Notes: generated by a model from the sequence alone, not told the origin. A stretch of 61,457 bases of DNA from Candidatus Thalassarchaeum sp. (GCA_022451235.1 JAKUOA010000008.1:49584-111040), one strand, 5' to 3'; positions 22,241 to 43,513 are shown, numbered from the stretch's first letter. Program-made: numbers and translations.

Positions 22241-23179
22241 TCACTCTTGCAGACGAGAAATCAAATCTGCTTTCTTACCAGAGACTGGTTTTCCTGCTTC
22301 CTTTAGAAGTTCTTTCAGTTCGGCAACAGTCATTGATTCAAAATCGATATCTGAGTCATCGGAGGATTCACTGACCTCGATATCCGGAACATCCTCATCT
22401 TCTTGCTCAGACGCTTCTTCTTCCTGCTCTTCATCTAAGTCATCCTTTCCTACCTCTGAAAGGTCTGCAGATGCCTCTGCTGCTGCGAGAACGTCAATGT
22501 CCTCAACTTCTGCTGCTGCGGCAGCAGCTTTCTCTTCTGCGTGAATATCATCCAAGGTCGGTCCGTCTTCTACAACTACCCCACTCTGGAGCAATTGGCT
22601 ACGGCGAATCATCACGGTTCTGACAGGGCTAACTTTAGAAACAGATTCTTTGATTGCTGCTTCCATGGTACCGTCTAGTACGGATTTTTGTAGTTGAATC
22701 CACGTAGAACTAGCGCCCATAGTTAGGATTTTTTCCTTTGCACTTGCTCTCATAGCAGATTTCTGGCTGGATTTTACCCGTGACCTAGAAATTAGTAATG
22801 GCTTGAATCTTACGTAATATCCATCCTCGGTAACAACATCGACAGTGTCGTCAACCTTTCCTCGATCACGACGAATCTGGCGGCGAATGTGATCTTTCTG
22901 GACATTGTGCCCAATGAATTCAGTAAGTGCATCTCCGCCAACAGCTTCTGTTATACGGAAGACTGCCTGCACATGCATCTTGGAAAAGTCACCATCAAGT
23001 TCATTTTGCATGATGTCGTATGTTCGCCCGATTAATTGTTCAGGCTCTTCTGCAAGGGTTTCTCCAATGATTTTGAACGACCATGGATTACGAGGTGCTC
23101 GGATTGTGTACCAGCGCTTTGCCTTCCACTTGTCTCTCCGGTTGCGTGCCGCTGCCCTTGCTTTTGCGCCCTTTGCCAT
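22241..23179 (-). CDS. rps3ae: Ribosomal protein eS1 (S3Ae) with a C-terminal acidic linker and SAP motif
   Basis: MAKGAKARAAARNRRDKWKAKRWYTIRAP... is a canonical eS1 N-terminus, with its ATG at 23179 preceded by GAGGTG. The C-terminus ends in MTVAELKELLKEAGKPVSGKKADLISRLQE. Confidence 0.85.
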   Translation of the reverse strand: MAKGAKARAAARNRRDKWKAKRWYTIRAPRNPWSFKIIGETLAEEPEQLIGRTYDIMQNELDGDFSKMHVQAVFRITEAVGGDALTEFIGHNVQKDHIRRQIRRDRGKVDDTVDVVTEDGYYVRFKPLLISRSRVKSSQKSAMRASAKEKILTMGASSTWIQLQKSVLDGTMEAAIKESVSKVSPVRTVMIRRSQLLQSGVVVEDGPTLDDIHAEEKAAAAAAEVEDIDVLAAAEASADLSEVGKDDLDEEQEEEASEQEDEDVPDIEVSESSDDSDIDFESMTVAELKELLKEAGKPVSGKKADLISRLQE

Positions 23180-23319
23180 GAGAAACACCTCGTATCGGGG
23201 GCTACCCCGTGTGCGAGCCGTCCGACCTGCCTCCAGTATTTGAATGAAAGCCCTCAAGTCCCATCCATAGACAAGGGCGCAGCGTGGTCTTCAAGGGCTG
23301 GTTGCTCTTGCCATAATCA

Positions 23320-25169: not shown

Positions 25170-26159
25170 TCAAACTTTCCCTCGTGTGGTGCCTAATTTT
25201 CTCTTCTTTGATTTTCTTGGCTTGGGTGTAGAAGGCTCATCCGTTTCTTCTTCAATTCCAGTGCCACCAAGAGTTAAACTGCCACTTTCGAGGAACATTG
25301 CTTCTAATGAGCCAGCCAACTCTTCGCTTTCGGAAGGAGATCTTATCGCATCTCTAACTGATTGGTTATGATCCTTGATAGTCTTCTCACGTTCTTCCCG
25401 TGCGGCTTTGATAGAATCTCGAATTTCATTTACTTGGTCGAGTAGAACTTTCATTTCAGAATGTACTTCGTCTGCTGCTTTTCTTGCTTCAATAAATGCG
25501 TTGTGAAGTCTATCCCCCTCAGCCCGTAGGAAATCTCTTTCTTCAAAGAGGGGTTTAATCTCCTCCCATATTTCATCGGCCTGTTTATGACAATCAATCA
25601 TAGCTTGATGTTCTGAATCCGCCTCGGCTTTTAGCCTATTTATCGATTCATCCATGTCGCCTAGATCAATTGTTATAGCCTCGTGTTCCTTAATCGCTGG
25701 AAGTAACTCGTTTCTTTTTCCAATGAGTTTTTTGAGTTCCTTTAGAAGCTTGTTTTCATCTTCCAACTTTAGTCTGCCATCAGTTTCTAATCGCCTCTCT
25801 ATCTTTTCAATTTGCCCTTCGGTTTCAGACAATTCAATAACTACCGACTTAGAGCCTCTTTCCTCATCCCAGCGCCCACGTTTCTTGGAAATTATCTCTC
25901 TAATGTGGCCTTGAATTTCGTCTCTCCTAGCCTTGTGAATTCTGGCTTCGTCTCTGATTTCTTTTTGTTTAGCCTTCAACTCGTCGATAGTTTCGCGTAA
26001 ACCTTTGGCCTGTTCCTGTACGGCATTTCGTGAATCTGCGGCTCTACGTGCGTTTTCGTTGTGACCATTACGATTATCTCGCATACGCCTAATCTTAGTC
26101 TCCATGGCGTGTAGACGACTCCGGAGGTCATCGTCTGGGTTGGTAGACTCATCAGACAC
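25170..26159 (-). CDS. Coiled-coil protein, paralogue 1 (archaeal COG1340-like), basic C-terminal tail
   Basis: K/E/R/D-rich with heptad-like periodicity throughout and no TM helix. Ends in PKPRKSKKRKLGTTRGKV. Confidence 0.6.
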   Translation of the reverse strand: MSDESTNPDDDLRSRLHAMETKIRRMRDNRNGHNENARRAADSRNAVQEQAKGLRETIDELKAKQKEIRDEARIHKARRDEIQGHIREIISKKRGRWDEERGSKSVVIELSETEGQIEKIERRLETDGRLKLEDENKLLKELKKLIGKRNELLPAIKEHEAITIDLGDMDESINRLKAEADSEHQAMIDCHKQADEIWEEIKPLFEERDFLRAEGDRLHNAFIEARKAADEVHSEMKVLLDQVNEIRDSIKAAREEREKTIKDHNQSVRDAIRSPSESEELAGSLEAMFLESGSLTLGGTGIEEETDEPSTPKPRKSKKRKLGTTRGKV

Positions 26160-26204
26160 AGCCGCCCCACGGCCGTTCGCTTCTTGAATGAACCTAATGT
26201 ATGG

Positions 26205-27794
26205 TTAGAGCCCAAGGACTGAGGCAATGAATGGTAGAATGGGGGAGAGAATTGCTATAATTGCACCAAGGATGAACAAAGCACCTGTTGTCATTCTAAG
26301 TCGAGTAAACAAGTCATTGCGAATCTGAACGGTTAGTACACGGCCAGAGATCAAGTTACCTTCCAAATCTTCTAGACGGATTGTAACTGTAGACTCTCCA
26401 GTACTAGAGGGTAACAAACTCTGCCAAATTATTCTGGTAGAATTCAGGATATTAGGAAGTGTATCAGTGATTTTGGGGGAAATTATCCCATCAAATGAAA
26501 TCGATTCATGTGGTTCCACCTTGAGGCGATACTCACAATCATTCGGTCTGAAATCAGGGGTTTGGACTCTCAAAATTAAATCTTTTACTTCATCTGTTTG
26601 ATTGAGAATAAATGCAAAAAGATTTGCCGGGCCAACAACTAAATTTTCCATATCTACGTCAAACCATACCTCACCAGATTTACCCGCTTGTTGCCTCATA
26701 TTTAATCGGTCATGAAGACGAAAAAACGGAGCGCAGTCAAGCATTGCTCTGGACAATAATCTATCCCAGGTTTCTTGACCTAATTCAGGGTGATCAAAGA
26801 GTTTATCGATTGAATTAGAATCTATCATAGATGCTAGAGCTGATCTGAATTGATTCTCATCAATCAAGGACATCCTTCTAAGATGTAATAGATGAAGTAG
26901 GGTCTCTTGTAATTCCGTCATAGATTGACCGGGTTTCATTTCCGATTCTACCGTCCGTAAATATTCAGATATTCTAACTGCCAGTAATGGGTCTATATGT
27001 GCCTTAATTACATCAGAAAACGGTCGACGCAGTAAAGCAGGATGAATAGGTGGAGAGAATGCACTCAACATCCCCCAAGGCTCATTCGCATTGAAGCGTG
27101 ATTTGTTTGAAACCAAGAAGGACCCATGGCCCGCTAACAAAGTACCAGTTGAAAACGCAACCAATCTAGGCGAAAGATCTCCATCGGGAGCCAGCCAAAG
27201 AGCTATGCCGAGAAATAAGATAGCTAGGAATAGGAAGCTTATCGTAGCGCCTAACTGTCTTCTAGAGCCATTAATCGTTGCACGCATTTCTGCATATCCG
27301 TGTGAGCTTTTGAAGGTTAAACCAGCAGTTGTAAGGGATTCTGCCTCGTGATGGAAAATCTTCCTAGTTATTGTCAATAATCTGAATAATAGTAGTAAGA
27401 GGGCTATATTTGCAACTAAGATGAATAATGAAAGAAAATGTATTCCAAGGTGCATTTCAACCGGAGCAACTTCTTGCATATGATCCAACCACCACTGTGG
27501 GGTTGTATTTCTGTAAGAATGGGCAAGACCAAAGTTAACAACGACAATCAATGGTAAAAATAGTACAAATCGAATTCCTCCGCTAATCAGAAGTCTGTCT
27601 ATTCGAAGGAGCGTTCGTTCTTGGCTCCTCAAACTATCTACTTCCGGAGTATGTATTTTTACAGAACTACCCACCCCCTGGTTCTGTCGGTTATCCTGAA
27701 TATTATCTTGAGAAGGATTTGATTGTCCCTCTAGAACTTCTGTTGCCAATGAACTAAGTGCATCCTCTAGGTTTGGAAATTCTTCATCCTGCAA
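26205..27794 (-). CDS. Polytopic membrane protein with a cytoplasmic helical domain and a beta-sandwich-like domain, function unknown
   Basis: 529 aa with several TM helices in the N-terminal half and one at the extreme C-terminus. 3-nt gap to the upstream DtxR gene. Confidence 0.55.
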   Translation of the reverse strand: MQDEEFPNLEDALSSLATEVLEGQSNPSQDNIQDNRQNQGVGSSVKIHTPEVDSLRSQERTLLRIDRLLISGGIRFVLFLPLIVVVNFGLAHSYRNTTPQWWLDHMQEVAPVEMHLGIHFLSLFILVANIALLLLLFRLLTITRKIFHHEAESLTTAGLTFKSSHGYAEMRATINGSRRQLGATISFLFLAILFLGIALWLAPDGDLSPRLVAFSTGTLLAGHGSFLVSNKSRFNANEPWGMLSAFSPPIHPALLRRPFSDVIKAHIDPLLAVRISEYLRTVESEMKPGQSMTELQETLLHLLHLRRMSLIDENQFRSALASMIDSNSIDKLFDHPELGQETWDRLLSRAMLDCAPFFRLHDRLNMRQQAGKSGEVWFDVDMENLVVGPANLFAFILNQTDEVKDLILRVQTPDFRPNDCEYRLKVEPHESISFDGIISPKITDTLPNILNSTRIIWQSLLPSSTGESTVTIRLEDLEGNLISGRVLTVQIRNDLFTRLRMTTGALFILGAIIAILSPILPFIASVLGL

Positions 27795-27797
27795 GTT

Positions 27798-28460
27798 CTA
27801 TGCCTCCAACCTAACTAAAATTCGCTTTGCTAATGATTCAGATAACAAAACAGGAGTGCCGCTTACATTGACTGAATTTTTGTCCTTTGATATATTGGCG
27901 CCAATAGAAATTTGTTGATTATCAAGGGTTTTGATATCTTGACCGGGGAGTGCGATGAATTCTACTATGCCACTACTACCCTCTGGCATATTAGAAATTG
28001 GTAACAATGGTGATTTGACATCAGGGTTAAATTGTCGTGAAATCTGAGGGACTCTTTCGCCCAAATGAGAGTGCTCAGGATAACCCAATAGTCGGTCTAT
28101 TGACGCCTCTAAATCATCATTGACTGCATGTTCCATTTCGCACGCTACCGAGCTCACATCCCCATCAAAACCAATTATATCAGTTAGTAGTAATTCAATA
28201 AGTAATTGTCGCCGCTTAATCTTCCCGGCAATAGCAAATCCTTCAGAAGTTAATCTCGATCCTTTGTAAGGGATATAAGTCACCAAATCGCGCCCTGAAA
28301 GTCTCTGGATCATTTCAGTTGTAGAAGCGGCACTAACACCCATCGATTCGGCTAACATCGAGGTTTTGACTATCGCGGCCGGATTTTCCGAATGTATCTC
28401 AAACATTGTTTTGAGGTACATTTCCTCAAAATCACTCAGATCTATCAACGATTTCACCAT
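27798..28460 (-). CDS. DtxR/MntR-family metal-dependent transcriptional regulator with a FeoA/SH3-like C-terminal domain
   Basis: wHTH N-terminus, dimerisation helix, ancillary-site-like CEMEH motif, and a C-terminal SSGIVEFI...LAKRILV FeoA-like domain. Confidence 0.85.
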   Translation of the reverse strand: MVKSLIDLSDFEEMYLKTMFEIHSENPAAIVKTSMLAESMGVSAASTTEMIQRLSGRDLVTYIPYKGSRLTSEGFAIAGKIKRRQLLIELLLTDIIGFDGDVSSVACEMEHAVNDDLEASIDRLLGYPEHSHLGERVPQISRQFNPDVKSPLLPISNMPEGSSGIVEFIALPGQDIKTLDNQQISIGANISKDKNSVNVSGTPVLLSESLAKRILVRLEA

Positions 28461-28462
28461 AA

Positions 28463-30355
28463 TTATGACTCTCCTACCTCTGCTAAGAACTCAGAGCGGC
28501 AGGCCGGACATCTAGCCTTCACTGGGCGTCTTTCAATTGGAACTTTTAGCGGCTGATCGCAACTTGGACAGGATAACAAATCAATCATTGAACGGGCAAC
28601 AATCTCCTGTGAAGTTTTAGGTTGTGGTGAATCTGTTTTTGGCTGATTAATATCCTCTTCTATAATTGAACCATCATCTTCAGAGTCTATCGCTTCCACC
28701 ATAAATCTGGCTGTACAAGCTGGACATTTTACCGCACCAGAGTGGGATTTTGGGATATTCAAACGTTGGTCACATTCCGGACAAGGTATCTCACGTTTTT
28801 CAACAGCAGCTGCCTTTTTCTTCTCTCCTCTAGCTTTTCTTAATCGATTAAACCTCGATTTTCCCGTGTCCTCTACGCTTTCTGAGACGGTTCGGTATAA
28901 GACTAAAATGAACATTACAAGGACTAATCCCGTTACGGTTCCATAAATTGCAGCGAGTAAATCGAATGGTAATTCTGCCTCCGTATCGGTGTCTGTATAA
29001 GTTTCTATTTCTAGGAGAATGCTTTCTGTAAGTCCACTAGTTAGCCAAATGATCTCAACATCGACCACCTTTGAATTGGGCCACTGTTCAATAGTAAATT
29101 CACCACTAAATGTATTTTCAGGCTCAACTGAATTTGTTGATATTGTGTCAAGTATCATCCGATCTGAGTTTCGTACTATCCTTACCTCTCCTGGTAATGT
29201 AGGGGTGTTTCCATTATTGATTAGAGAAAAGGGTATTTTGACAGATTCACCTACCTGTGGAGCAGTACTAACACCTTCGGAAGAAACCTCGAGATCTAGC
29301 ACTGGAGGAATTAAGTTAGTTTGAATTTCTATTTCTTCTGCTGCAGTCCAAGTAACTGAATTAACCCGGATTATTAGTGAGTCTGCGGAGGGATTACCGA
29401 GAGCCAGATTTAGTTCCCTTCTACCTGGATCCATGGTGAATTCGAAATTTTGCAAATTAGTTTCAATGGTTTGATAGATTATTGCAACTTCAATTTCCAC
29501 CTCTCTAGAACGACCATCACTAAGGTAAATGGAAATTCCTGAATTAAGGCCATCGACGAGATTCCATTCCAAAGAATCAACCACTATTTGGGTTGATTGT
29601 GGCTCTAAAACTTCAATTATAGTGCTTCCATTAAGTTCTCTTGCAACCCCTCCATTACTTGAGTGAACCTTCCAATCTAGATTTATCGAACCAGATGATG
29701 AAGGCGTAAACGAGGCGGAAACCTCTCTACTAGAACCTGGATAAATCAATATGGGTTGACCTTGAATAGTGTCTAAGTCATTTGGCATTAATTCCAAACT
29801 TACGTATTCAGGGTTTTGGCCCTGATTGTGGACTAAAATAGAGGCGGACAGTGAATCTCCCACATGGGCTGGTTCGCCAATTAGTGCTATTTCGGAAGAA
29901 CCTGCGGCTGTAAGATTCAATGGATTTGGCTCTACTAGTAACGTTAGCCTTTCACTCTGACCTGTAGAATCAATTCCAAAAATCAGATCAATTACCCCTT
30001 CCGACAGTGGACCGAATGAGATATTTACGATTACTGTCAGCTCGGAACCCTCAAGGAATCCGGTTAGTTCGGGGGTAGTTTGCCCGTCTAATTCCATCAC
30101 AAACCACCACTCATCGTGACCTGCAGTAGTGTCACTATTCGAGACCTCGATGGATAATTGGATTTGATCGCCTGCAAAAGCTGATGAATTATCCGAGGGT
30201 TGGGAGTTTGAACCATCGATTATTCTGGTTTCCCAATCGGCGGAATTTTCTATGGTGAATCTGTCCTGAGCGCTCGCATTTATCGAAATCAGGGTCACAA
30301 ATACCATGGCGGCTGTTATCGCTAGCAGGTTGCGACGACGAACCCCAGTCATCAT
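28463..30355 (-). CDS. Surface protein: signal peptide, repeated CARDB/Ig-like domains, one TM helix, cytoplasmic tail with two CxxC...CxxC zinc ribbons
   Basis: MMTGVRRRNLLAITAAMVFVTLISINASA signal. Repeated beta-rich segments. TM GTVTGLVLVMFILVLY. Tail motifs CPECDQRLNIP...CPACTARF and CPSCDQPLKVP...CPACRSEF (MJ0042-type). Confidence 0.6.
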   Translation of the reverse strand: MMTGVRRRNLLAITAAMVFVTLISINASAQDRFTIENSADWETRIIDGSNSQPSDNSSAFAGDQIQLSIEVSNSDTTAGHDEWWFVMELDGQTTPELTGFLEGSELTVIVNISFGPLSEGVIDLIFGIDSTGQSERLTLLVEPNPLNLTAAGSSEIALIGEPAHVGDSLSASILVHNQGQNPEYVSLELMPNDLDTIQGQPILIYPGSSREVSASFTPSSSGSINLDWKVHSSNGGVARELNGSTIIEVLEPQSTQIVVDSLEWNLVDGLNSGISIYLSDGRSREVEIEVAIIYQTIETNLQNFEFTMDPGRRELNLALGNPSADSLIIRVNSVTWTAAEEIEIQTNLIPPVLDLEVSSEGVSTAPQVGESVKIPFSLINNGNTPTLPGEVRIVRNSDRMILDTISTNSVEPENTFSGEFTIEQWPNSKVVDVEIIWLTSGLTESILLEIETYTDTDTEAELPFDLLAAIYGTVTGLVLVMFILVLYRTVSESVEDTGKSRFNRLRKARGEKKKAAAVEKREIPCPECDQRLNIPKSHSGAVKCPACTARFMVEAIDSEDDGSIIEEDINQPKTDSPQPKTSQEIVARSMIDLLSCPSCDQPLKVPIERRPVKARCPACRSEFLAEVGES

Positions 30356-30403
30356 TGGCTAATCGTCGGAGCAAGTCAGCGTATCAAGGGAACCCCAATC
30401 CAA

Positions 30404-30427
30404 GGTCACGTAGTGACCTTTATGATA
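30404..30427 (+). promoter_or_regulatory. Perfect palindrome GGTCAC-GTA-GTGACC abutting a TATA-like TTTATGATA, 25-33 nt upstream of ATG 30452
   Basis: Read directly. Lies in the 96-nt divergent spacer between the surface-protein/DtxR operon and the three tandem coiled-coil genes. Confidence 0.4.
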
Positions 30428-30451
30428 GGCTCTAATTTCGGCCGTTTGCAT

Positions 30452-31318
30452 ATGGAGTCTGATGCTCTGCTAGCAGTCACGCCGAATCAAATGGCGCAGG
30501 CTTTATTGGATCGCAGGATTCTTTTGAAGGAACAGTTACCTACTGTAATTCGAACACTTGAGGCCGAAGAACAGAATCTTTCACCCAAAGTTGCTCGTAT
30601 TGTAGATAATCACAAACAAGCCAATGAGGTAGTGGCGAAGTTGAAAGAAGAACGTGACCACGCTCAAATCGAAGCAAGAAATCTAATTCCGAAGGTTAAG
30701 CAGCATCGAAATGTCTTGGTAGATTCTGGCGGTATGGTCAATTTAGACCCCGATTGGAAAAAAGAAAAATTATTAGAAGAATTGTATGAAATTGAAGAAA
30801 ATATCCAAACTTCTGCATTAGACCATAAAGCCGAAAAAAAGATGATTGAACGCAGAAAGAAGTTAATTGAGCAAAACGAAAAATGGCTTAAAGAAAGAAG
30901 GGATTCAAATCCAGAAATGGCTGAATATATCGATTCACGAAGAGAGATGTCTCACCAATTCATGGTTGCTAACAAGGCTCATAGAACTATGATGAAAGCT
31001 GTCGAAAAGGCACAGCCACTGCATGATAAGAAAGTAGCAATACAGGCGGAAATTCGAGAAGTTAGGAGACAATTGGATAGAGCAAAGGAATTACTTTCTC
31101 AGTCAGATCATGCAATAGAACATTGGCAACGCCGATTAAATGACGGATATAGTGAGTTAGGAGTTGGTTTTCCTGACCTACTCAGTGACATGAATCAAGT
31201 TCAAAATGGAGGCGATTCCAGTTTTGCTAGAAAAAACAAGAAAAACAAACATACTCCTTCAAACAATAAACAAGACCGACGTGTCAAAACCTCCGATTCC
31301 AGAGGTGAAGAAGAATGA
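30452..31318 (+). CDS. Coiled-coil protein, paralogue 2 (COG1340-like)
   Basis: The track ORF starts at a GTG at 30413; the ATG at 30452 (MESDALL) is more likely. Contains LLEELYEIEENIQTSALDHKAEKKMIERRKKL, a family-like central motif. Basic tail. Confidence 0.6.
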   Translation: MESDALLAVTPNQMAQALLDRRILLKEQLPTVIRTLEAEEQNLSPKVARIVDNHKQANEVVAKLKEERDHAQIEARNLIPKVKQHRNVLVDSGGMVNLDPDWKKEKLLEELYEIEENIQTSALDHKAEKKMIERRKKLIEQNEKWLKERRDSNPEMAEYIDSRREMSHQFMVANKAHRTMMKAVEKAQPLHDKKVAIQAEIREVRRQLDRAKELLSQSDHAIEHWQRRLNDGYSELGVGFPDLLSDMNQVQNGGDSSFARKNKKNKHTPSNNKQDRRVKTSDSRGEEE

Positions 31319-32280
31319 GCGATGGGCTATTCGATGACCTTGAGGAACTTCCTCATGAAGAAATCGAGGATAAGGCCAAACAGTTAGATCGCGATTTACG
31401 CTCATTAGATGATGAATTTCATTCCCTGCGCCAAGATCGACGATCTCAGGTAGATATTGTAAAATCACTGAGGGGGGCTGTCGGCGGAATTGAAGAGGCG
31501 AATAGTGAGAGGCGAAGTCTGTTGCGTGAATTTCATGAAATAAAGAAAAAGGCTGACAAGGAAAGAAAATTACGAGACAGAGTCAACCTATCAATCCCAC
31601 CTCCTGCTTCAGTCTTAGAAGAATGGATGACCGACACACACTCTAGATTAACCACCATAGACAACGACCTCACTGCAGTTCCTACTCTAAATAGGGAATT
31701 GGACTCATTTAGAAGATTCTTCGAATTACAAGCCGCGGTAGTTCGGAAGCGAGAAGCTGAAGACGCACATTCTAGATACGTAGGTCAAATTGAGGAGTTA
31801 AGAAAAGTAACCTCTAAATTAGACGCGACGAAAAAGGTCAGCAAGGAAGTCGCAGATTCTGCCACTTCAGTTATTGATGTAGATTCAGATAAAATAACAC
31901 GTAGTGAAATCAGGAAAATGAGCAAGAGAATTAGCGGCATAGATAAGCGATTAGATGAGATTAAATCACAACGAAAGAAATTGCGAAGAGAAGCAGGAAG
32001 AGTCAGGTCATATCTGAAGATCACCTCAGCAAGAGGAAAGAAAATTAGACTAATTGATGTAAAACAGAGAGCCAGTACAGGAGGCTCACTAAATGCCAAT
32101 GAATTATCTGCATTACTAGATTCTGGCAGTTTAACAGGTATCTCCGGTGAAGTACCCAAATCAGAGGCTGCGAAATCTCAAGCCCCAAGACGCGATAAAT
32201 CAGGGAAGAAGGGGAGGCGTAGACTAGGAGTAACTAGAGGCGGGCCGAGGAAGGGTAATTCCGCAACCCGCCGAGAATGA
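31315..32280 (+). CDS. Coiled-coil protein, paralogue 3 (COG1340-like), basic C-terminal tail
   Basis: ATGA overlap with paralogue 2. Ends in GKKGRRRLGVTRGGPRKGNSATRRE. Confidence 0.6.
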   Translation: MSDGLFDDLEELPHEEIEDKAKQLDRDLRSLDDEFHSLRQDRRSQVDIVKSLRGAVGGIEEANSERRSLLREFHEIKKKADKERKLRDRVNLSIPPPASVLEEWMTDTHSRLTTIDNDLTAVPTLNRELDSFRRFFELQAAVVRKREAEDAHSRYVGQIEELRKVTSKLDATKKVSKEVADSATSVIDVDSDKITRSEIRKMSKRISGIDKRLDEIKSQRKKLRREAGRVRSYLKITSARGKKIRLIDVKQRASTGGSLNANELSALLDSGSLTGISGEVPKSEAAKSQAPRRDKSGKKGRRRLGVTRGGPRKGNSATRRE

Positions 32281-32286
32281 GAAAAA

Positions 32287-33228
32287 TTGACTTCAAATGA
32301 CCTTATATGGAAAACTAAGGACGTTGTTTCGCAGGGGCACGATTATATGAGGATGGAAAGCGAGGAAATTCGCGATATTCTTCAACCACTCTGTGAAGAT
32401 ATTCAGGAGCAGATTTCCTATAATCGTGAAGAACGCGACCAATGGAATTCGAAAGTTCGTAAATTACTCGACCAACGTAATGAATTAAATCGCCAAGTAA
32501 AGGAATTAATTTCTGAGGTACAGGGTCAAAAAGCTCTACGAGATGATGCAAATAAAACCGTCAGAGAATTAAAAGAAATCAGGGCTGACAAGACCGAGAC
32601 ACTGAGAGAAATTAGGACTAATTTTAGGGAGAAAATTGCCGAAAATAGTTCTCGAGATGAAGAGAAAGATACACGTGATAGGACTCGCTCCCCTGGTAGG
32701 ATTAGAGCAGAAATTGATCTTTTGGAAAAACAGTACAATGAAGGGCGGTTCCTTGGTAAGAAGGAACGTGATTTTGTGGCTAAAATGAAAAAGTTACATC
32801 AAGAACTAAGAGATGCTAAGGAAAAGAAATCCGATGGCGGAGTTAGGGAATTAAAGATTCAACTTAGGGATGCTGAAAGGAAACAAGAAGACGCTCACAA
32901 GAAGGTCAAGCGTGCGGTTATAGGTGCTCAAGAAGCACATGACTTGATGGCCGAATTATCTGAAGAAGTTGACAGATTAAGAGAGAAAGCTAATTCTGCT
33001 CAATCAGGGGTAACTCGAGCAAAAAGGGAAGCCGACTCACTTCATGGAAGATACATTGTATCATTGAGATGTATACATTCCATGCAAGATTTGCTAAAGT
33101 CATTGAACTCTAGAGAGGGAGATACTACAGATGATGATGAGCAAGTAGAAGTCGCTGACCTGATGACAAGGCTGATGTCTGGTGACACATTATCTACTGA
33201 CGAAATCATGGCACTCCAGAGGAATTGA
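32287..33228 (+). CDS. Coiled-coil protein, paralogue 4 (COG1340-like)
   Basis: TTG start in the track, with an alternative ATG at 32347. Charged heptad-like sequence throughout. The 3' end overlaps the convergent gene by 23 nt. Confidence 0.55.
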   Translation: MTSNDLIWKTKDVVSQGHDYMRMESEEIRDILQPLCEDIQEQISYNREERDQWNSKVRKLLDQRNELNRQVKELISEVQGQKALRDDANKTVRELKEIRADKTETLREIRTNFREKIAENSSRDEEKDTRDRTRSPGRIRAEIDLLEKQYNEGRFLGKKERDFVAKMKKLHQELRDAKEKKSDGGVRELKIQLRDAERKQEDAHKKVKRAVIGAQEAHDLMAELSEEVDRLREKANSAQSGVTRAKREADSLHGRYIVSLRCIHSMQDLLKSLNSREGDTTDDDEQVEVADLMTRLMSGDTLSTDEIMALQRN

Positions 33229-34213
33229 GTTCGTAAGTTCTTCCATTTCTAGAATGAAGTAACTCAATCCCGCCTTCATGGTCGATTAGCCAGCCGGGAA
33301 TGGCGGATGGGATTTCTTCCAGTATAGCCCCCTCTGAATCAAATGTCCATCTTTCTAGCATAGTGCTTCTAACCGAACTTCCTTCTACGGAATCTCCTTG
33401 TTTTTGCCTTCTAGTCTCCAAAACCCCTACCAACATGACTCTCAAATCACCATCGCTCAACCATTTATTTTCTGCGGCATTTATTATCCGAAGACTTGGA
33501 GGGTTGTGGAGAATTTGTTCTGAATCGTAGGGCTGTAAACGATCGGCCCAAGGATCTTCCAATACGCTCCAATTACCTTCTTCCCTATCTCCTTCCGGAC
33601 TGACTAAGGCACCAGTGATGTTCCAAATACGAGCTTGGAGTAGAATTGGCTTAGCATCGACATATTCTATACCTCTCTGTATACACCATTCATCTAAGTC
33701 AACTATAGCGGGTAAAATAACTAATTTGTTCGGTTTTGGAATGGATGAATTTTCCTCGATTGAGGGTTTATCGACTTCTATTTGTGGAATTTTTGCGACT
33801 ATATCTCCACGTAAAATCGCTTCTCCAATCCAACGACTTAAGACATCTGGGCTCCAAAATTCAATTTTCAAATTTGAAGATAATAACTCTCTAGCCTGTT
33901 CCTCAAATTCTCTCTCACTCAATATCCAATGTGCACCATTAGGAGCATCTACAATCCATCTTTCAGCCTCTGCAACACTTACTGGAAGAATTGCTCTAGG
34001 CACATGCCAAACGTGCACAAAAGACCCAGTATTATCTTCTAATTCAGGGATTTTTTCCGCCACACCCAGACATCGAAAACCCACTATTTCTACTACGTTA
34101 ACAGCCTGTGTCAACCTAACACCACGAAGATAGAGTAAATCCCCGACAGTATCATCCATGACTCCTGGTAGTTGTATATACCTTGAAGGGAATCCCTTCA
34201 ATGTATGAATCAA
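33206..34213 (-). CDS. Hypothetical protein (335 aa), last gene of the RNAP-L30e transcription unit
   Basis: Long ORF 31 nt downstream of rpl30e on the same strand. I recognise no motif. Confidence 0.5.
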   Translation of the reverse strand: MIHTLKGFPSRYIQLPGVMDDTVGDLLYLRGVRLTQAVNVVEIVGFRCLGVAEKIPELEDNTGSFVHVWHVPRAILPVSVAEAERWIVDAPNGAHWILSEREFEEQARELLSSNLKIEFWSPDVLSRWIGEAILRGDIVAKIPQIEVDKPSIEENSSIPKPNKLVILPAIVDLDEWCIQRGIEYVDAKPILLQARIWNITGALVSPEGDREEGNWSVLEDPWADRLQPYDSEQILHNPPSLRIINAAENKWLSDGDLRVMLVGVLETRRQKQGDSVEGSSVRSTMLERWTFDSEGAILEEIPSAIPGWLIDHEGGIELLHSRNGRTYELNSSGVP

Positions 34214-42925: not shown

Positions 42926-43513
42926 TCAAGCACTCTCCACAATTAGTCTGAACGCTGTACTTGAACCAGCAACTCGACTATATCGAATTACTCGGACTAC
43001 TCTGTTTGCAAGCCATCCTGCTGGTAAGTCCTCATTCTCAGACTCTACCTTTTCTTTGATGGCTTGAACTGCAGGATCGGTGATCAGAATCTTAGGCAAT
43101 AGCTCCTTTGCGAGTCTAACCCCTCCTGAATTGTCGGGGACCTCTAGACCCCAATGAGACAAAACAGCTGATTCGTCTTCTTCGGAGACCAACTCATGGT
43201 GCGGCACTAAGATGTGATTTAGTACATTAAAGCGATCATCACCTTGTGGTATGTCCATCATTTCCAGAGCTTTTCTTGAAATTGTTATTCTACCGGAGCG
43301 ACTGCGTCGACGAGAGGTGTTGTGCTCTCTGATAATGGTCATGATATTCTCTAGGGTAGCATCACTCATCGCGACTCCAGTCTTTTCAGACACTTCCTCA
43401 ACCGTCATTCTCTTGATTGCATCCATGTTTGCGTCGTCAGCGAGTTTGTGAGCATGTTCTGCATCGATGCCCAACTCGATTAGACGCTTTTTTGTCGAAC
43501 TCTTTACTGCCAT
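42926..43513 (-). CDS. rpoH: DNA-directed RNA polymerase subunit H (Rpb5-like) with an N-terminal extension of about 95 aa
   Basis: C-terminal HILVPHHELVSEEDE...ITDPAVQAIK...VVRVIRYSRVAG is the RpoH core. First gene of the rpoH-B-A'-A'' operon. Confidence 0.85.
   Translation of the reverse strand: MAVKSSTKKRLIELGIDAEHAHKLADDANMDAIKRMTVEEVSEKTGVAMSDATLENIMTIIREHNTSRRRSRSGRITISRKALEMMDIPQGDDRFNVLNHILVPHHELVSEEDESAVLSHWGLEVPDNSGGVRLAKELLPKILITDPAVQAIKEKVESENEDLPAGWLANRVVRVIRYSRVAGSSTAFRLIVESA

Follow-up and report, generated by a model that had tools for sequence, protein, structure and literature searches.

A gene cluster at positions 25170–34213 of a 61,457 nucleotide (nt) stretch of DNA from a Marine Group II (MGII) archaeon (Poseidoniales, Thalassarchaeaceae, MGIIb), hereafter the window, is a new arrangement built on a known, uncharacterised protein family, DUF7121/COG1340. 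Four coiled-coil proteins of this family (CC1–CC4) are encoded beside a surface protein with a double zinc ribbon (IgZn), a regulator (DtxR) and a polytopic membrane protein (TM529). The genes are arranged as two back-to-back transcription units, IgZn–DtxR–TM529(–CC1) and CC2–CC3, with starts ~95 base pairs (bp) apart. Our reading of the locus, held tentatively and as something short of probable, is that of a Poseidoniales-specific co-regulated unit, in which hairpins of CC1–CC3 would lie at the inner membrane face together with the zinc-ribbon tail of IgZn and, where present, TM529, under a metal-responsive repressor.

Marine Group II archaea (Poseidoniales) rank with the most abundant archaea of the plankton. 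To our knowledge none has been cultured, and conserved order-specific loci are therefore among the few routes to their cell biology. DUF7121/COG1340 spans the Euryarchaeota and the Asgard archaea; in the window it is quadrupled and linked to defined membrane partners and to a specific cis-element.

The nine open reading frames (ORFs) described in the original prediction, which was made from the sequence alone, were all recovered with the coordinates and strands claimed for them. The features discussed below are as follows (lengths in amino acids, aa).

25170–26159, minus strand: CC1, diverged DUF7121/COG1340 paralogue, 329 aa
26205–27794, minus strand: TM529, polytopic membrane protein, 529 aa
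27798–28460, minus strand: DtxR, DtxR/MntR-family metal-dependent repressor, 220 aa
28463–30355, minus strand: IgZn, type-I membrane protein with a CARDB/immunoglobulin-like (Ig) ectodomain and a double zinc ribbon
30381–30396, minus strand (letters given as plus strand): promoter-like element GTAT(C/G)AAxGAAACCC, candidate TATA box/B recognition element (BRE) of IgZn
30403–30419, strandless: 17-bp palindrome AGGTCAC-GTA-GTGACCT, candidate operator between the divergent promoters
30452–31318, plus strand: CC2, diverged DUF7121 paralogue
31315–32280, plus strand: CC3, most diverged DUF7121 paralogue, 321 aa
32347–33228, plus strand: CC4, canonical DUF7121/COG1340 orthologue, 293 aa
33206–34213, minus strand: U335, Trp-rich protein after L30e; likely 33206–34159

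The CC2 ORF is open from 30413, with the likely start at 30452, where the ATG is conserved and from which point (residue 14) sequence conservation begins. Likewise, the CC4 ORF is open from 32287 and the likely start at 32347 gives 293 aa, homologues being 291–293 aa long. The likely start of U335 is at 34159 (317 aa).

The coiled-coil family

Pairwise BLAST matches among CC1–CC4 are weak and barely significant. Against Pfam DUF7121 (PF23435, cut-off 29 bits) CC4 scores above the cut-off (41.7 bits) and CC1 just below it (28.4 bits), and no match was found for the window copies of CC2 and CC3; a precomputed PF23435 mark is present on orthologues of CC1, CC2 and CC4. Orthologue profiles of 72–79 sequences each, taken from 80 related genomes, were compared by hhalign with a profile of 36 distant family representatives (Thermoplasmata, Asgard archaea and other groups). 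The probability of a match is 100 % for CC4 (283 columns), 99.4 % for CC1 (262 columns), 97.8 % for CC2 (167 columns) and 92.1 % for CC3 (237 columns, collinear), whereas controls in which the target was reversed or column-shuffled scored at most 20.2 with a probability of at most 0.9 % (for CC3 the null score is at most 18.1). Given such clean controls the paralogy of CC1–CC4 is regarded as real. By profile comparison the four proteins are thus one superfamily, DUF7121/COG1340, with CC3 the most diverged, in agreement with the single COG1340-like family originally proposed. The shared central motif noted at that stage is the family signature LEFxQQTxxLxxxKExxLIxxIxxL, which is recognisable in all four proteins.

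Structure prediction within the coiled-coil set covers CC4. The AlphaFold2 (AF2) model (predicted local distance difference test, pLDDT, 81) is an antiparallel hairpin of two long helices (25–130 and 186–278, roughly 95–105 residues each) joined by tip helices at 136–181, and the family signature forms the tip. Sequence and profile searches of the PDB with CC4 returned nothing at E <0.07. Foldseek comparison of the model with the PDB returned generic antiparallel coiled coils such as SMC arms and chemoreceptors; SMC arm fragments match best, with template-modelling scores up to 0.57/0.76, and all E values are at least 0.01.

The four copies differ at their C-termini. CC4 ends in an acidic motif of the type DLMxRLMSGDTLST(D/E)E(I/L)MALQRN, present in 63 of 72 orthologues and corresponding to the family-wide FKxGEKLSTEDLMxLQKxG. 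The canonical form, G(E/D)(K/T)LST(E/D)(E/D)hhxLQ, occurs in no orthologue of CC1 (0/79), CC2 (0/76) or CC3 (0/76), and these three are therefore classed as diverged paralogues and not as canonical members. On motif and profile evidence CC4 is the canonical, conserved, single-copy archaeal orthologue, and CC1–CC3 are diverged duplicates, known only from Poseidoniales, in which the canonical C-terminal motif has been lost. CC1 retains SGxLTLGG in degenerate form, and its basic tail closes with R(K/R)LGTTRG(K/R), a motif found in 73/79 orthologues. In CC3 the degenerate stretch reads SGSLT, and the tail, RRLGV(T/S)RGGxR(R/K)G, is strongly basic. Over the last 35 residues the net charge has a median of +7 in CC1 orthologues and +11 in CC3 orthologues. 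The tail of CC2, GGxSSFA(R/K)...EEE, consists of a basic stretch followed by EEE. Upstream of CC4 is a TATA-like element, CTTATATGG, at ~32302–32310, and CC4 seems to have its own promoter.

An exhaustive DUF7121 profile search yielded 814 cluster representatives, 249 of them at E <1e-10, mostly ~290 aa long and aligned end to end. Named members come from Thermoplasmata, Methanomethylophilaceae, Heimdall-, Hod- and Odinarchaeia and Methanimicrococcus, and are often mis-named ‘phosphoserine phosphatase’. In the literature on DUF7121/PF23435/COG1340 and on Poseidoniales coiled-coil proteins a single sentence was found, in a 2005 survey, where the family is described as ‘highly conserved ... of unknown function’ (PMC1322226).

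Neighbourhoods outside MGII were compared at seven loci (two from Thermoplasmatota, an unassigned third genome, a Heimdallarchaeon, Methanimicrococcus and two further lineages). At all seven, DUF7121 is single-copy, with no IgZn, TM529 or DtxR gene nearby; its neighbours include SRP54, S15/GAN/S3Ae, MCM, Lon with a tRNA endonuclease, AspRS and an Arf-like GTPase. DUF7121 being without these partners outside Poseidoniales-like lineages, the association is lineage-specific and not pan-archaeal. Several individual neighbours were recorded. In one of the Thermoplasmatota (L088, 5389–6758) a KaiC-type ATPase and a degenerate KaiC-like protein form a divergent pair near DUF7121; an Arf/Ras-type small GTPase is encoded immediately upstream of DUF7121 in L089 (6406–6951); and SRP54 is immediately downstream in two related genomes (L085 and L088, 8180–9523). 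Among the seven loci sampled, none of these recurs widely. An older zinc-ribbon partnership was also considered, as DZR proteins adjoin DUF7121 in two Thermoplasmatota genomes, and was rejected: these are soluble multi-ribbon proteins, unlike IgZn.

The company of the canonical gene and the basic tails raise the possibility of membrane-tethered information processing, which we consider improbable. On this view the targets of DUF7121 proteins would be ribosomes, RNA polymerase or the chromosome, with the RGR-like tails of CC1 and CC3 as nucleic-acid binders; the membrane proteins would, with equally low probability, serve as membrane anchors for translation, transcription or the nucleoid. In the seven unrelated archaea canonical DUF7121 is found among ribosomal-protein, SRP54, aIF5B, MCM, AspRS, RpoE/RpoF and tRNA-processing genes, the cluster itself is situated between S3Ae and the rpo operon, and the tail charges of CC1 and CC3 would suit such a role. 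Additionally, one CC3 orthologue has a weak Seryl_tRNA_N-like match (23.6 bits vs a cut-off of 28.2). However, any universal archaeal gene typically keeps housekeeping company and no single partner recurs, the seryl-tRNA synthetase arm match is below threshold and may reflect the hairpin fold only, and no nucleic-acid-binding domain was detected.

Divergent units, their control region and their products

The divergent operon is as compact as originally described, with spacers of 2 nt (IgZn–DtxR) and 3 nt (DtxR–TM529), followed by 45 nt between TM529 and CC1; on the opposite strand CC2 and CC3 share an ATGA overlap of 4 nt (31315–31318). Equally tight same-strand gaps elsewhere in the window occur only within recognised operons, e.g. 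rpo, and most others are 40–110 nt. No evident TATA element was found in the 45 nt before CC1.

The IgZn–CC2 spacer is 96 bp long. GTAT(C/G)AAxGAAACCC is located ~25 nt upstream of the IgZn ATG and varies little or not at all across 50 distinct intergenic sequences; it is kept at the equivalent position also in MGIIb clades that do not have the exact palindrome (L046–L084). From its position it is a candidate TATA/BRE of IgZn. On the other side a TATA-like CTTTA(T/A)(G/T) is located ~29 nt from the CC2 ATG, the window copy being CTTTATGATA at 30418–30427. The spacing of the elements from both ATGs suggests two leaderless divergent transcripts.

Between the two TATA-like elements, and abutted by that of CC2, is the perfect palindrome AGGTCAC-RTA-GTGACCT, which occurs once in the window. 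The exact palindrome is present in 50 of 76 MGIIb loci, including those in which IgZn is just 36–40 % identical. In a metagenome collection scanned for exact matches only, 88 of the 120 sampled occurrences are at the IgZn–CC2 boundary, the remaining 32 being singletons of unrelated GC content, bacterial contexts (RecA, an OmpR-type regulator) and one eukaryote-like repeated locus. The latter is coding-poor (L102, 8700–8870, also L098, L111, L128, L175 and L199), and its possession of the same 17-mer was judged coincidental. A wider regulon was considered and set aside, there being no second MGII site among the sampled exact matches. Other MGIIb clades have a different sequence at the palindrome position, in some cases itself palindromic, such as ATAGCCC-N5-GGGCTAT (L081) and AACCATTTTAATGGTT (L049). 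The palindrome is also absent from the deeper lineage L092 (described below), where DtxR is absent too. The palindrome is a candidate operator for both units, most simply for the operon-encoded DtxR.

The assignment of DtxR as a metalloregulator was borne out by both Pfam domains (PF01325, 53.2 bits, cut-off 26; PF02742, 54.4 bits, cut-off 27). None of the NCBIfam equivalogs was reached (MntR-Therm 84.9 vs 350; DtxR-Actino 53.4 vs 290), and the C-terminal FeoA/SH3-like match is weak. The motifs EEM14YLK and AC106-E-M-E109-H110 (CxxEH) are conserved across 81 orthologues; Met14, Cys106, Glu109 and His110 are presumably the primary metal site, equivalent to Met10, Cys102, Glu105 and His106 of DtxR. 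By inspection the ancillary-site His residues seem to have been replaced. Covariation between recognition helix and operator was considered, and clades differ by two conservative changes (T to V and I to V), too weak a signal to be used.

IgZn has a signal peptide, MMTGVRRRNLLAITAAMVFVTLISINASA, and a single transmembrane (TM) helix at ~466–487 followed by a K/R-rich stretch, as read from the sequence. It had been described as a multi-Ig, CARDB-like surface protein with two MJ0042-type ribbons. The CARDB domain (PF07705, 32.9 bits vs a cut-off of 22.7), the membrane anchor and the two ribbons are present, the ribbons being of the form CPxC-x15-CPxC at ~523–550 and ~594–622; the MJ0042 label is not upheld, as TIGR02098 (13.3 vs 20.9) and PF13717 Zn_ribbon_4 (21.2 vs 30.3) are both below cut-off. 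The four cysteines of ribbon 2 (C596, C599, C616 and C619) are 100 % conserved, and ribbon 1 is at least 95 % conserved. Over 77 orthologues mean identity to the window copy is 0.45 in the ectodomain and 0.68 and 0.72 in the ribbons, the cysteines of which are invariant. An extra N-terminal Ig domain is present in 41 % of these orthologues, and total length varies from 487 to 817 aa. The double zinc ribbon is the best-conserved part of IgZn, and it is retained in the three deeper lineages (L092, L093 and L094) despite the variation in length.

TM529 has no match in Pfam, NCBIfam or the PDB, including a profile search against the PDB (nothing at E <0.07). Its AF2 model (pLDDT 66.5) comprises four N-terminal TM helices, a helical domain, a seven-strand sandwich at 376–491 and a C-terminal TM helix. 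The beta-sandwich-like domain anticipated for this protein is thus present in the model, and Foldseek matches are to generic Ig-like domains only (transglutaminase, complement MG, GH2). From the Lys/Arg distribution (positive-inside rule) the large domain is probably cytoplasmic. All 328 homologues are apparently from MGII and the gene is found in 129 species; orthologues are 49–96 % identical to the window copy, the closest public genomes including ‘Euryarchaeota archaeon UBA126’ and ‘MED-G37’ (94–96 %).

The conserved zinc ribbons, together with a palindrome between the two promoters, are consistent with a co-regulated unit that makes its important contacts in the cytoplasm. In such a unit the zinc-ribbon tail of IgZn and the large domain of TM529 would dock the hairpins of CC1–CC3 to the inner membrane face, and the result may be a scaffold or tether close to the membrane. 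A negatively charged partner, nucleic acid or acidic lipid, could be bound by the basic tails of CC1 and CC3, and the fast-evolving Ig ectodomain of IgZn would couple the assembly to the cell surface. DtxR, when bound to Fe2+ or Mn2+, may occupy the palindrome and block TBP/TFB at both promoters, so that expression would follow metal status.

A metal-homeostasis or metal-sensing operon is a second possibility for the same genes, and to us quite an unlikely one. DtxR would here control IgZn and TM529 as a surface pair for metal binding, uptake or sensing, and the coiled-coil genes would be bystanders or just co-repressed. The DtxR gene, with its primary metal site intact, is embedded between membrane-protein genes with 2–3 nt spacers, a palindromic candidate operator is located in the promoter region, and DtxR regulators classically govern metal-transport operons. 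Yet neither IgZn nor TM529 resembles a transporter or a metal-binding family, TM529 has just five TM helices, and L092 keeps the operon without DtxR. In addition, no further MGII locus with the exact palindrome came to light among the sampled matches, which leaves no sign of a wider metal regulon.

Gene order across lineages

A 15-gene block that includes the housekeeping flanks is collinear in essentially all of the 80 MGIIb species loci. The left flank consists of MTAP, S3Ae-SAP, an RNA-binding protein, ferredoxin and PdxS, and the right flank of rpoH-rpoB-rpoA1-rpoA2-L30e. Within MGIIb the flanks are as syntenic as the cluster, and synteny at this depth therefore cannot separate a module from frozen gene order.

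Three deeper lineages were compared, L092 (34 % GC), L093 (68 % GC, a 3-Mb contig) and L094 (47 % GC). The core, CC1 and IgZn divergent from CC2–CC3, is unbroken in the 80 MGIIb species and in all three, and CC1 and CC3 are found in all lineages examined. In L094 the order is PdxS, CC1–TM529–DtxR–IgZn divergent from CC2–CC3, then genes for a GNAT acetyltransferase, a Roadblock-like protein and a KaiC-type ATPase, then CC4–PurP–U335–L30e–rpo. L092 is without DtxR, and without U335 and rpo to the right, the rpo flank being elsewhere; its CC2 copy is shortened to 141 aa, and its left flank is kept, as in L094. In L093 the left flank is changed (Nre) and TM529 is missing. As DtxR is absent from L092 and TM529 from L093, neither is a core part; each being missing in one sister lineage, both would be accessory parts of the proposed unit.

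CC4 is set apart from CC3 by 2–4 unrelated genes in all three deeper lineages. These inserts (L092, 8826–9850; L094, 8336–9854; L093, 7636–9395) encode the GNAT acetyltransferase, the Roadblock/LC7-like protein (113–114 aa) and the KaiC-type ATPase, and in L093 also a membrane protein; they have been lost from this position in MGIIb. The Roadblock/LC7-like match is below threshold (15.7–17.9 bits vs 23).

The chief rival to a co-regulated unit is that there is no module at all: unrelated neighbours would be held in a frozen gene order between the PdxS block and rpo, with IgZn–DtxR–TM529 an unrelated envelope or metal operon. We judge this unlikely, if far from negligible, and the same holds for its corollary that CC1–CC3 are beside CC4 only through tandem duplication. 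The collinear 15-gene block in MGIIb is as expected of it, as are the left flank kept in L092 and L094, the apparent promoter of CC4 and the seven loci from other archaea in which DUF7121 has no such partners. However, at least five local rearrangements in four lineages never parted CC1 from the IgZn unit or IgZn from CC2–CC3. The ~95 bp of control region common to both units also contain a palindrome that is conserved and site-specific, and CC1 is 45 nt downstream of TM529 without an evident TATA element, observations that count against frozen order.

Several observations weigh against the co-regulated unit. The flanking genes (MTAP, S3Ae, ferredoxin and PdxS to the left, L30e and rpo to the right) are equally syntenic in MGIIb, so that much of the conservation of the cluster could reflect frozen order, and the paralogues may be together merely through tandem duplication. 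L093 does without TM529 and L092 without DtxR, the remaining genes still being in place. The palindrome is missing in 26 of the 76 MGIIb loci that have DtxR and also in L093 and L094, where DtxR is kept, and its 7-3-7 layout is unlike the classical DtxR/IdeR box of 19 bp. The variable housekeeping neighbours of DUF7121 outside the group give no functional lead, and the fold of CC4 resembles only generic coiled-coil arms (SMC, chemoreceptors).

Considered together, a scaffold is a plausible reading of the cluster. Of the envelope-spanning scaffold module originally proposed, the anatomy stands (outer Ig domains, membrane anchor, cytoplasmic ribbons, coiled-coil paralogues and DtxR), whereas U335 probably falls outside it and DtxR and TM529 are not core. 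The neighbourhood extends over 80 MGIIb species and three deeper lineages, and is absent from the seven loci outside Poseidoniales. Three outcomes had been named as speaking against the module, namely a neighbourhood confined to this genome, confident homology of the membrane proteins to an unrelated known system, and coiled-coil genes scattered and independently regulated in relatives; none of these was observed. A real module would amount to a novel type of coiled-coil system associated with the archaeal membrane; should there be none, four genes have still been sorted into one canonical and three derived copies, with DtxR, TM529 and U335 removed from the supposed core.

U335 had been counted as the ninth gene of the cluster. 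It is the gene after L30e in MGIIb, L093 and L094, wherever that flank was seen, and it probably belongs with the rpoH-B-A1-A2-L30e array and not with the cluster. The statement that it has no recognisable motif is correct at the level of families, there being no Pfam, NCBIfam or PDB match even with a profile of 19 orthologues. It is a conserved Trp-rich protein with the motifs GFRCLG, HVWH, ERWxVDAPxGxHWILSER, EDPW and LHGRNGR. NusA usually occupies the position after L30e in archaea; U335, located at that position, was considered as a diverged NusA, which is unsupported as no KH or other domain was found.

Two proteins of the flanks were noted in addition. S3Ae (22241–23257, minus strand; 167 bits) has a long acidic linker and a C-terminal SAP (DNA-binding) domain (48.8 bits), a fusion also found in other Poseidoniales loci (L001, L003 and L092). 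RpoH (42926–43513, minus strand) is 195 aa long, with Rpb5_C only at residues 95–191 and a ~94-aa N-terminal extension that has no Pfam match; orthologues are 195–209 aa, and archaeal RpoH is normally ~80 aa.

Comparison with known systems

No known pathway matches the cluster, as the original prediction had stated, nor does any known defence system, and the coiled-coil family is uncharacterised. An anti-phage function was considered and rejected, as PADLOC returned coiled-coil noise only (JetC, LmuB and MkoC, 11.7–21.8 bits, E values of 1e-5 to 1e-2) and no match for TM529, DtxR or U335.

Compared with DUF7121/COG1340 elsewhere, CC4 is full-length at ~290 aa with the same GxxLST(D/E)(D/E)hhxLQ, and CC1–CC3 are homologous over 167–262 columns. 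Unlike the one copy in the other archaea sampled, four copies are found here in 8 kb, and CC1–CC3 are without the C-terminal motif, have altered tails and are linked to membrane-protein genes. The long antiparallel two-helix hairpin of the CC4 model is shared with the arms of SMC, Rad50 and chemoreceptors. However, ATPase heads, hinge and signalling domains are absent, and NCBIfam/PADLOC matches to SMC and JetC are far below cut-offs; the resemblance of CC4 to SMC arms is one of fold and composition only.

DtxR shares with DtxR/IdeR/MntR regulators both Pfam domains, the primary-site residues and a candidate palindromic operator overlapping a promoter, as in autoregulated DtxR operons. It differs in that the palindrome is 7-3-7 and confined to a single locus, not regulon-wide, and in that the putative target genes are not transporters.

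A functional analogy only may be drawn with the Agl-Glt focal adhesion of Myxococcus, the components of which include GltJ, AglZ (a coiled-coil protein) and MglA/MglB (PMC11135422). The cytosolic zinc finger of the membrane protein GltJ binds a coiled-coil partner and recruits a Roadblock protein (PMC11135422). Both systems combine a membrane protein bearing a cytosolic zinc ribbon or finger with coiled-coil partners. A Roadblock/LC7-like gene (the MglB fold class) is found in the sister-lineage clusters, and an Arf/Ras-type GTPase is encoded upstream of DUF7121 in one of the Thermoplasmatota. In contrast, the window has no GYF domain, MglA-type GTPase, motor genes or Roadblock gene, and the archaeal envelope differs; the likeness of IgZn and the coiled-coil proteins to the GltJ system is suggestive only. 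An archaeal membrane skeleton or focal-adhesion-like device, in which a variable Ig adhesin or receptor would be wired through its zinc-ribbon tail and TM529 to a metal-switched lattice of CC1–CC3, is accordingly phrased here as a long shot. Were it true, it would provide the first functional handle on COG1340, among the last widely conserved archaeal proteins without a known role.

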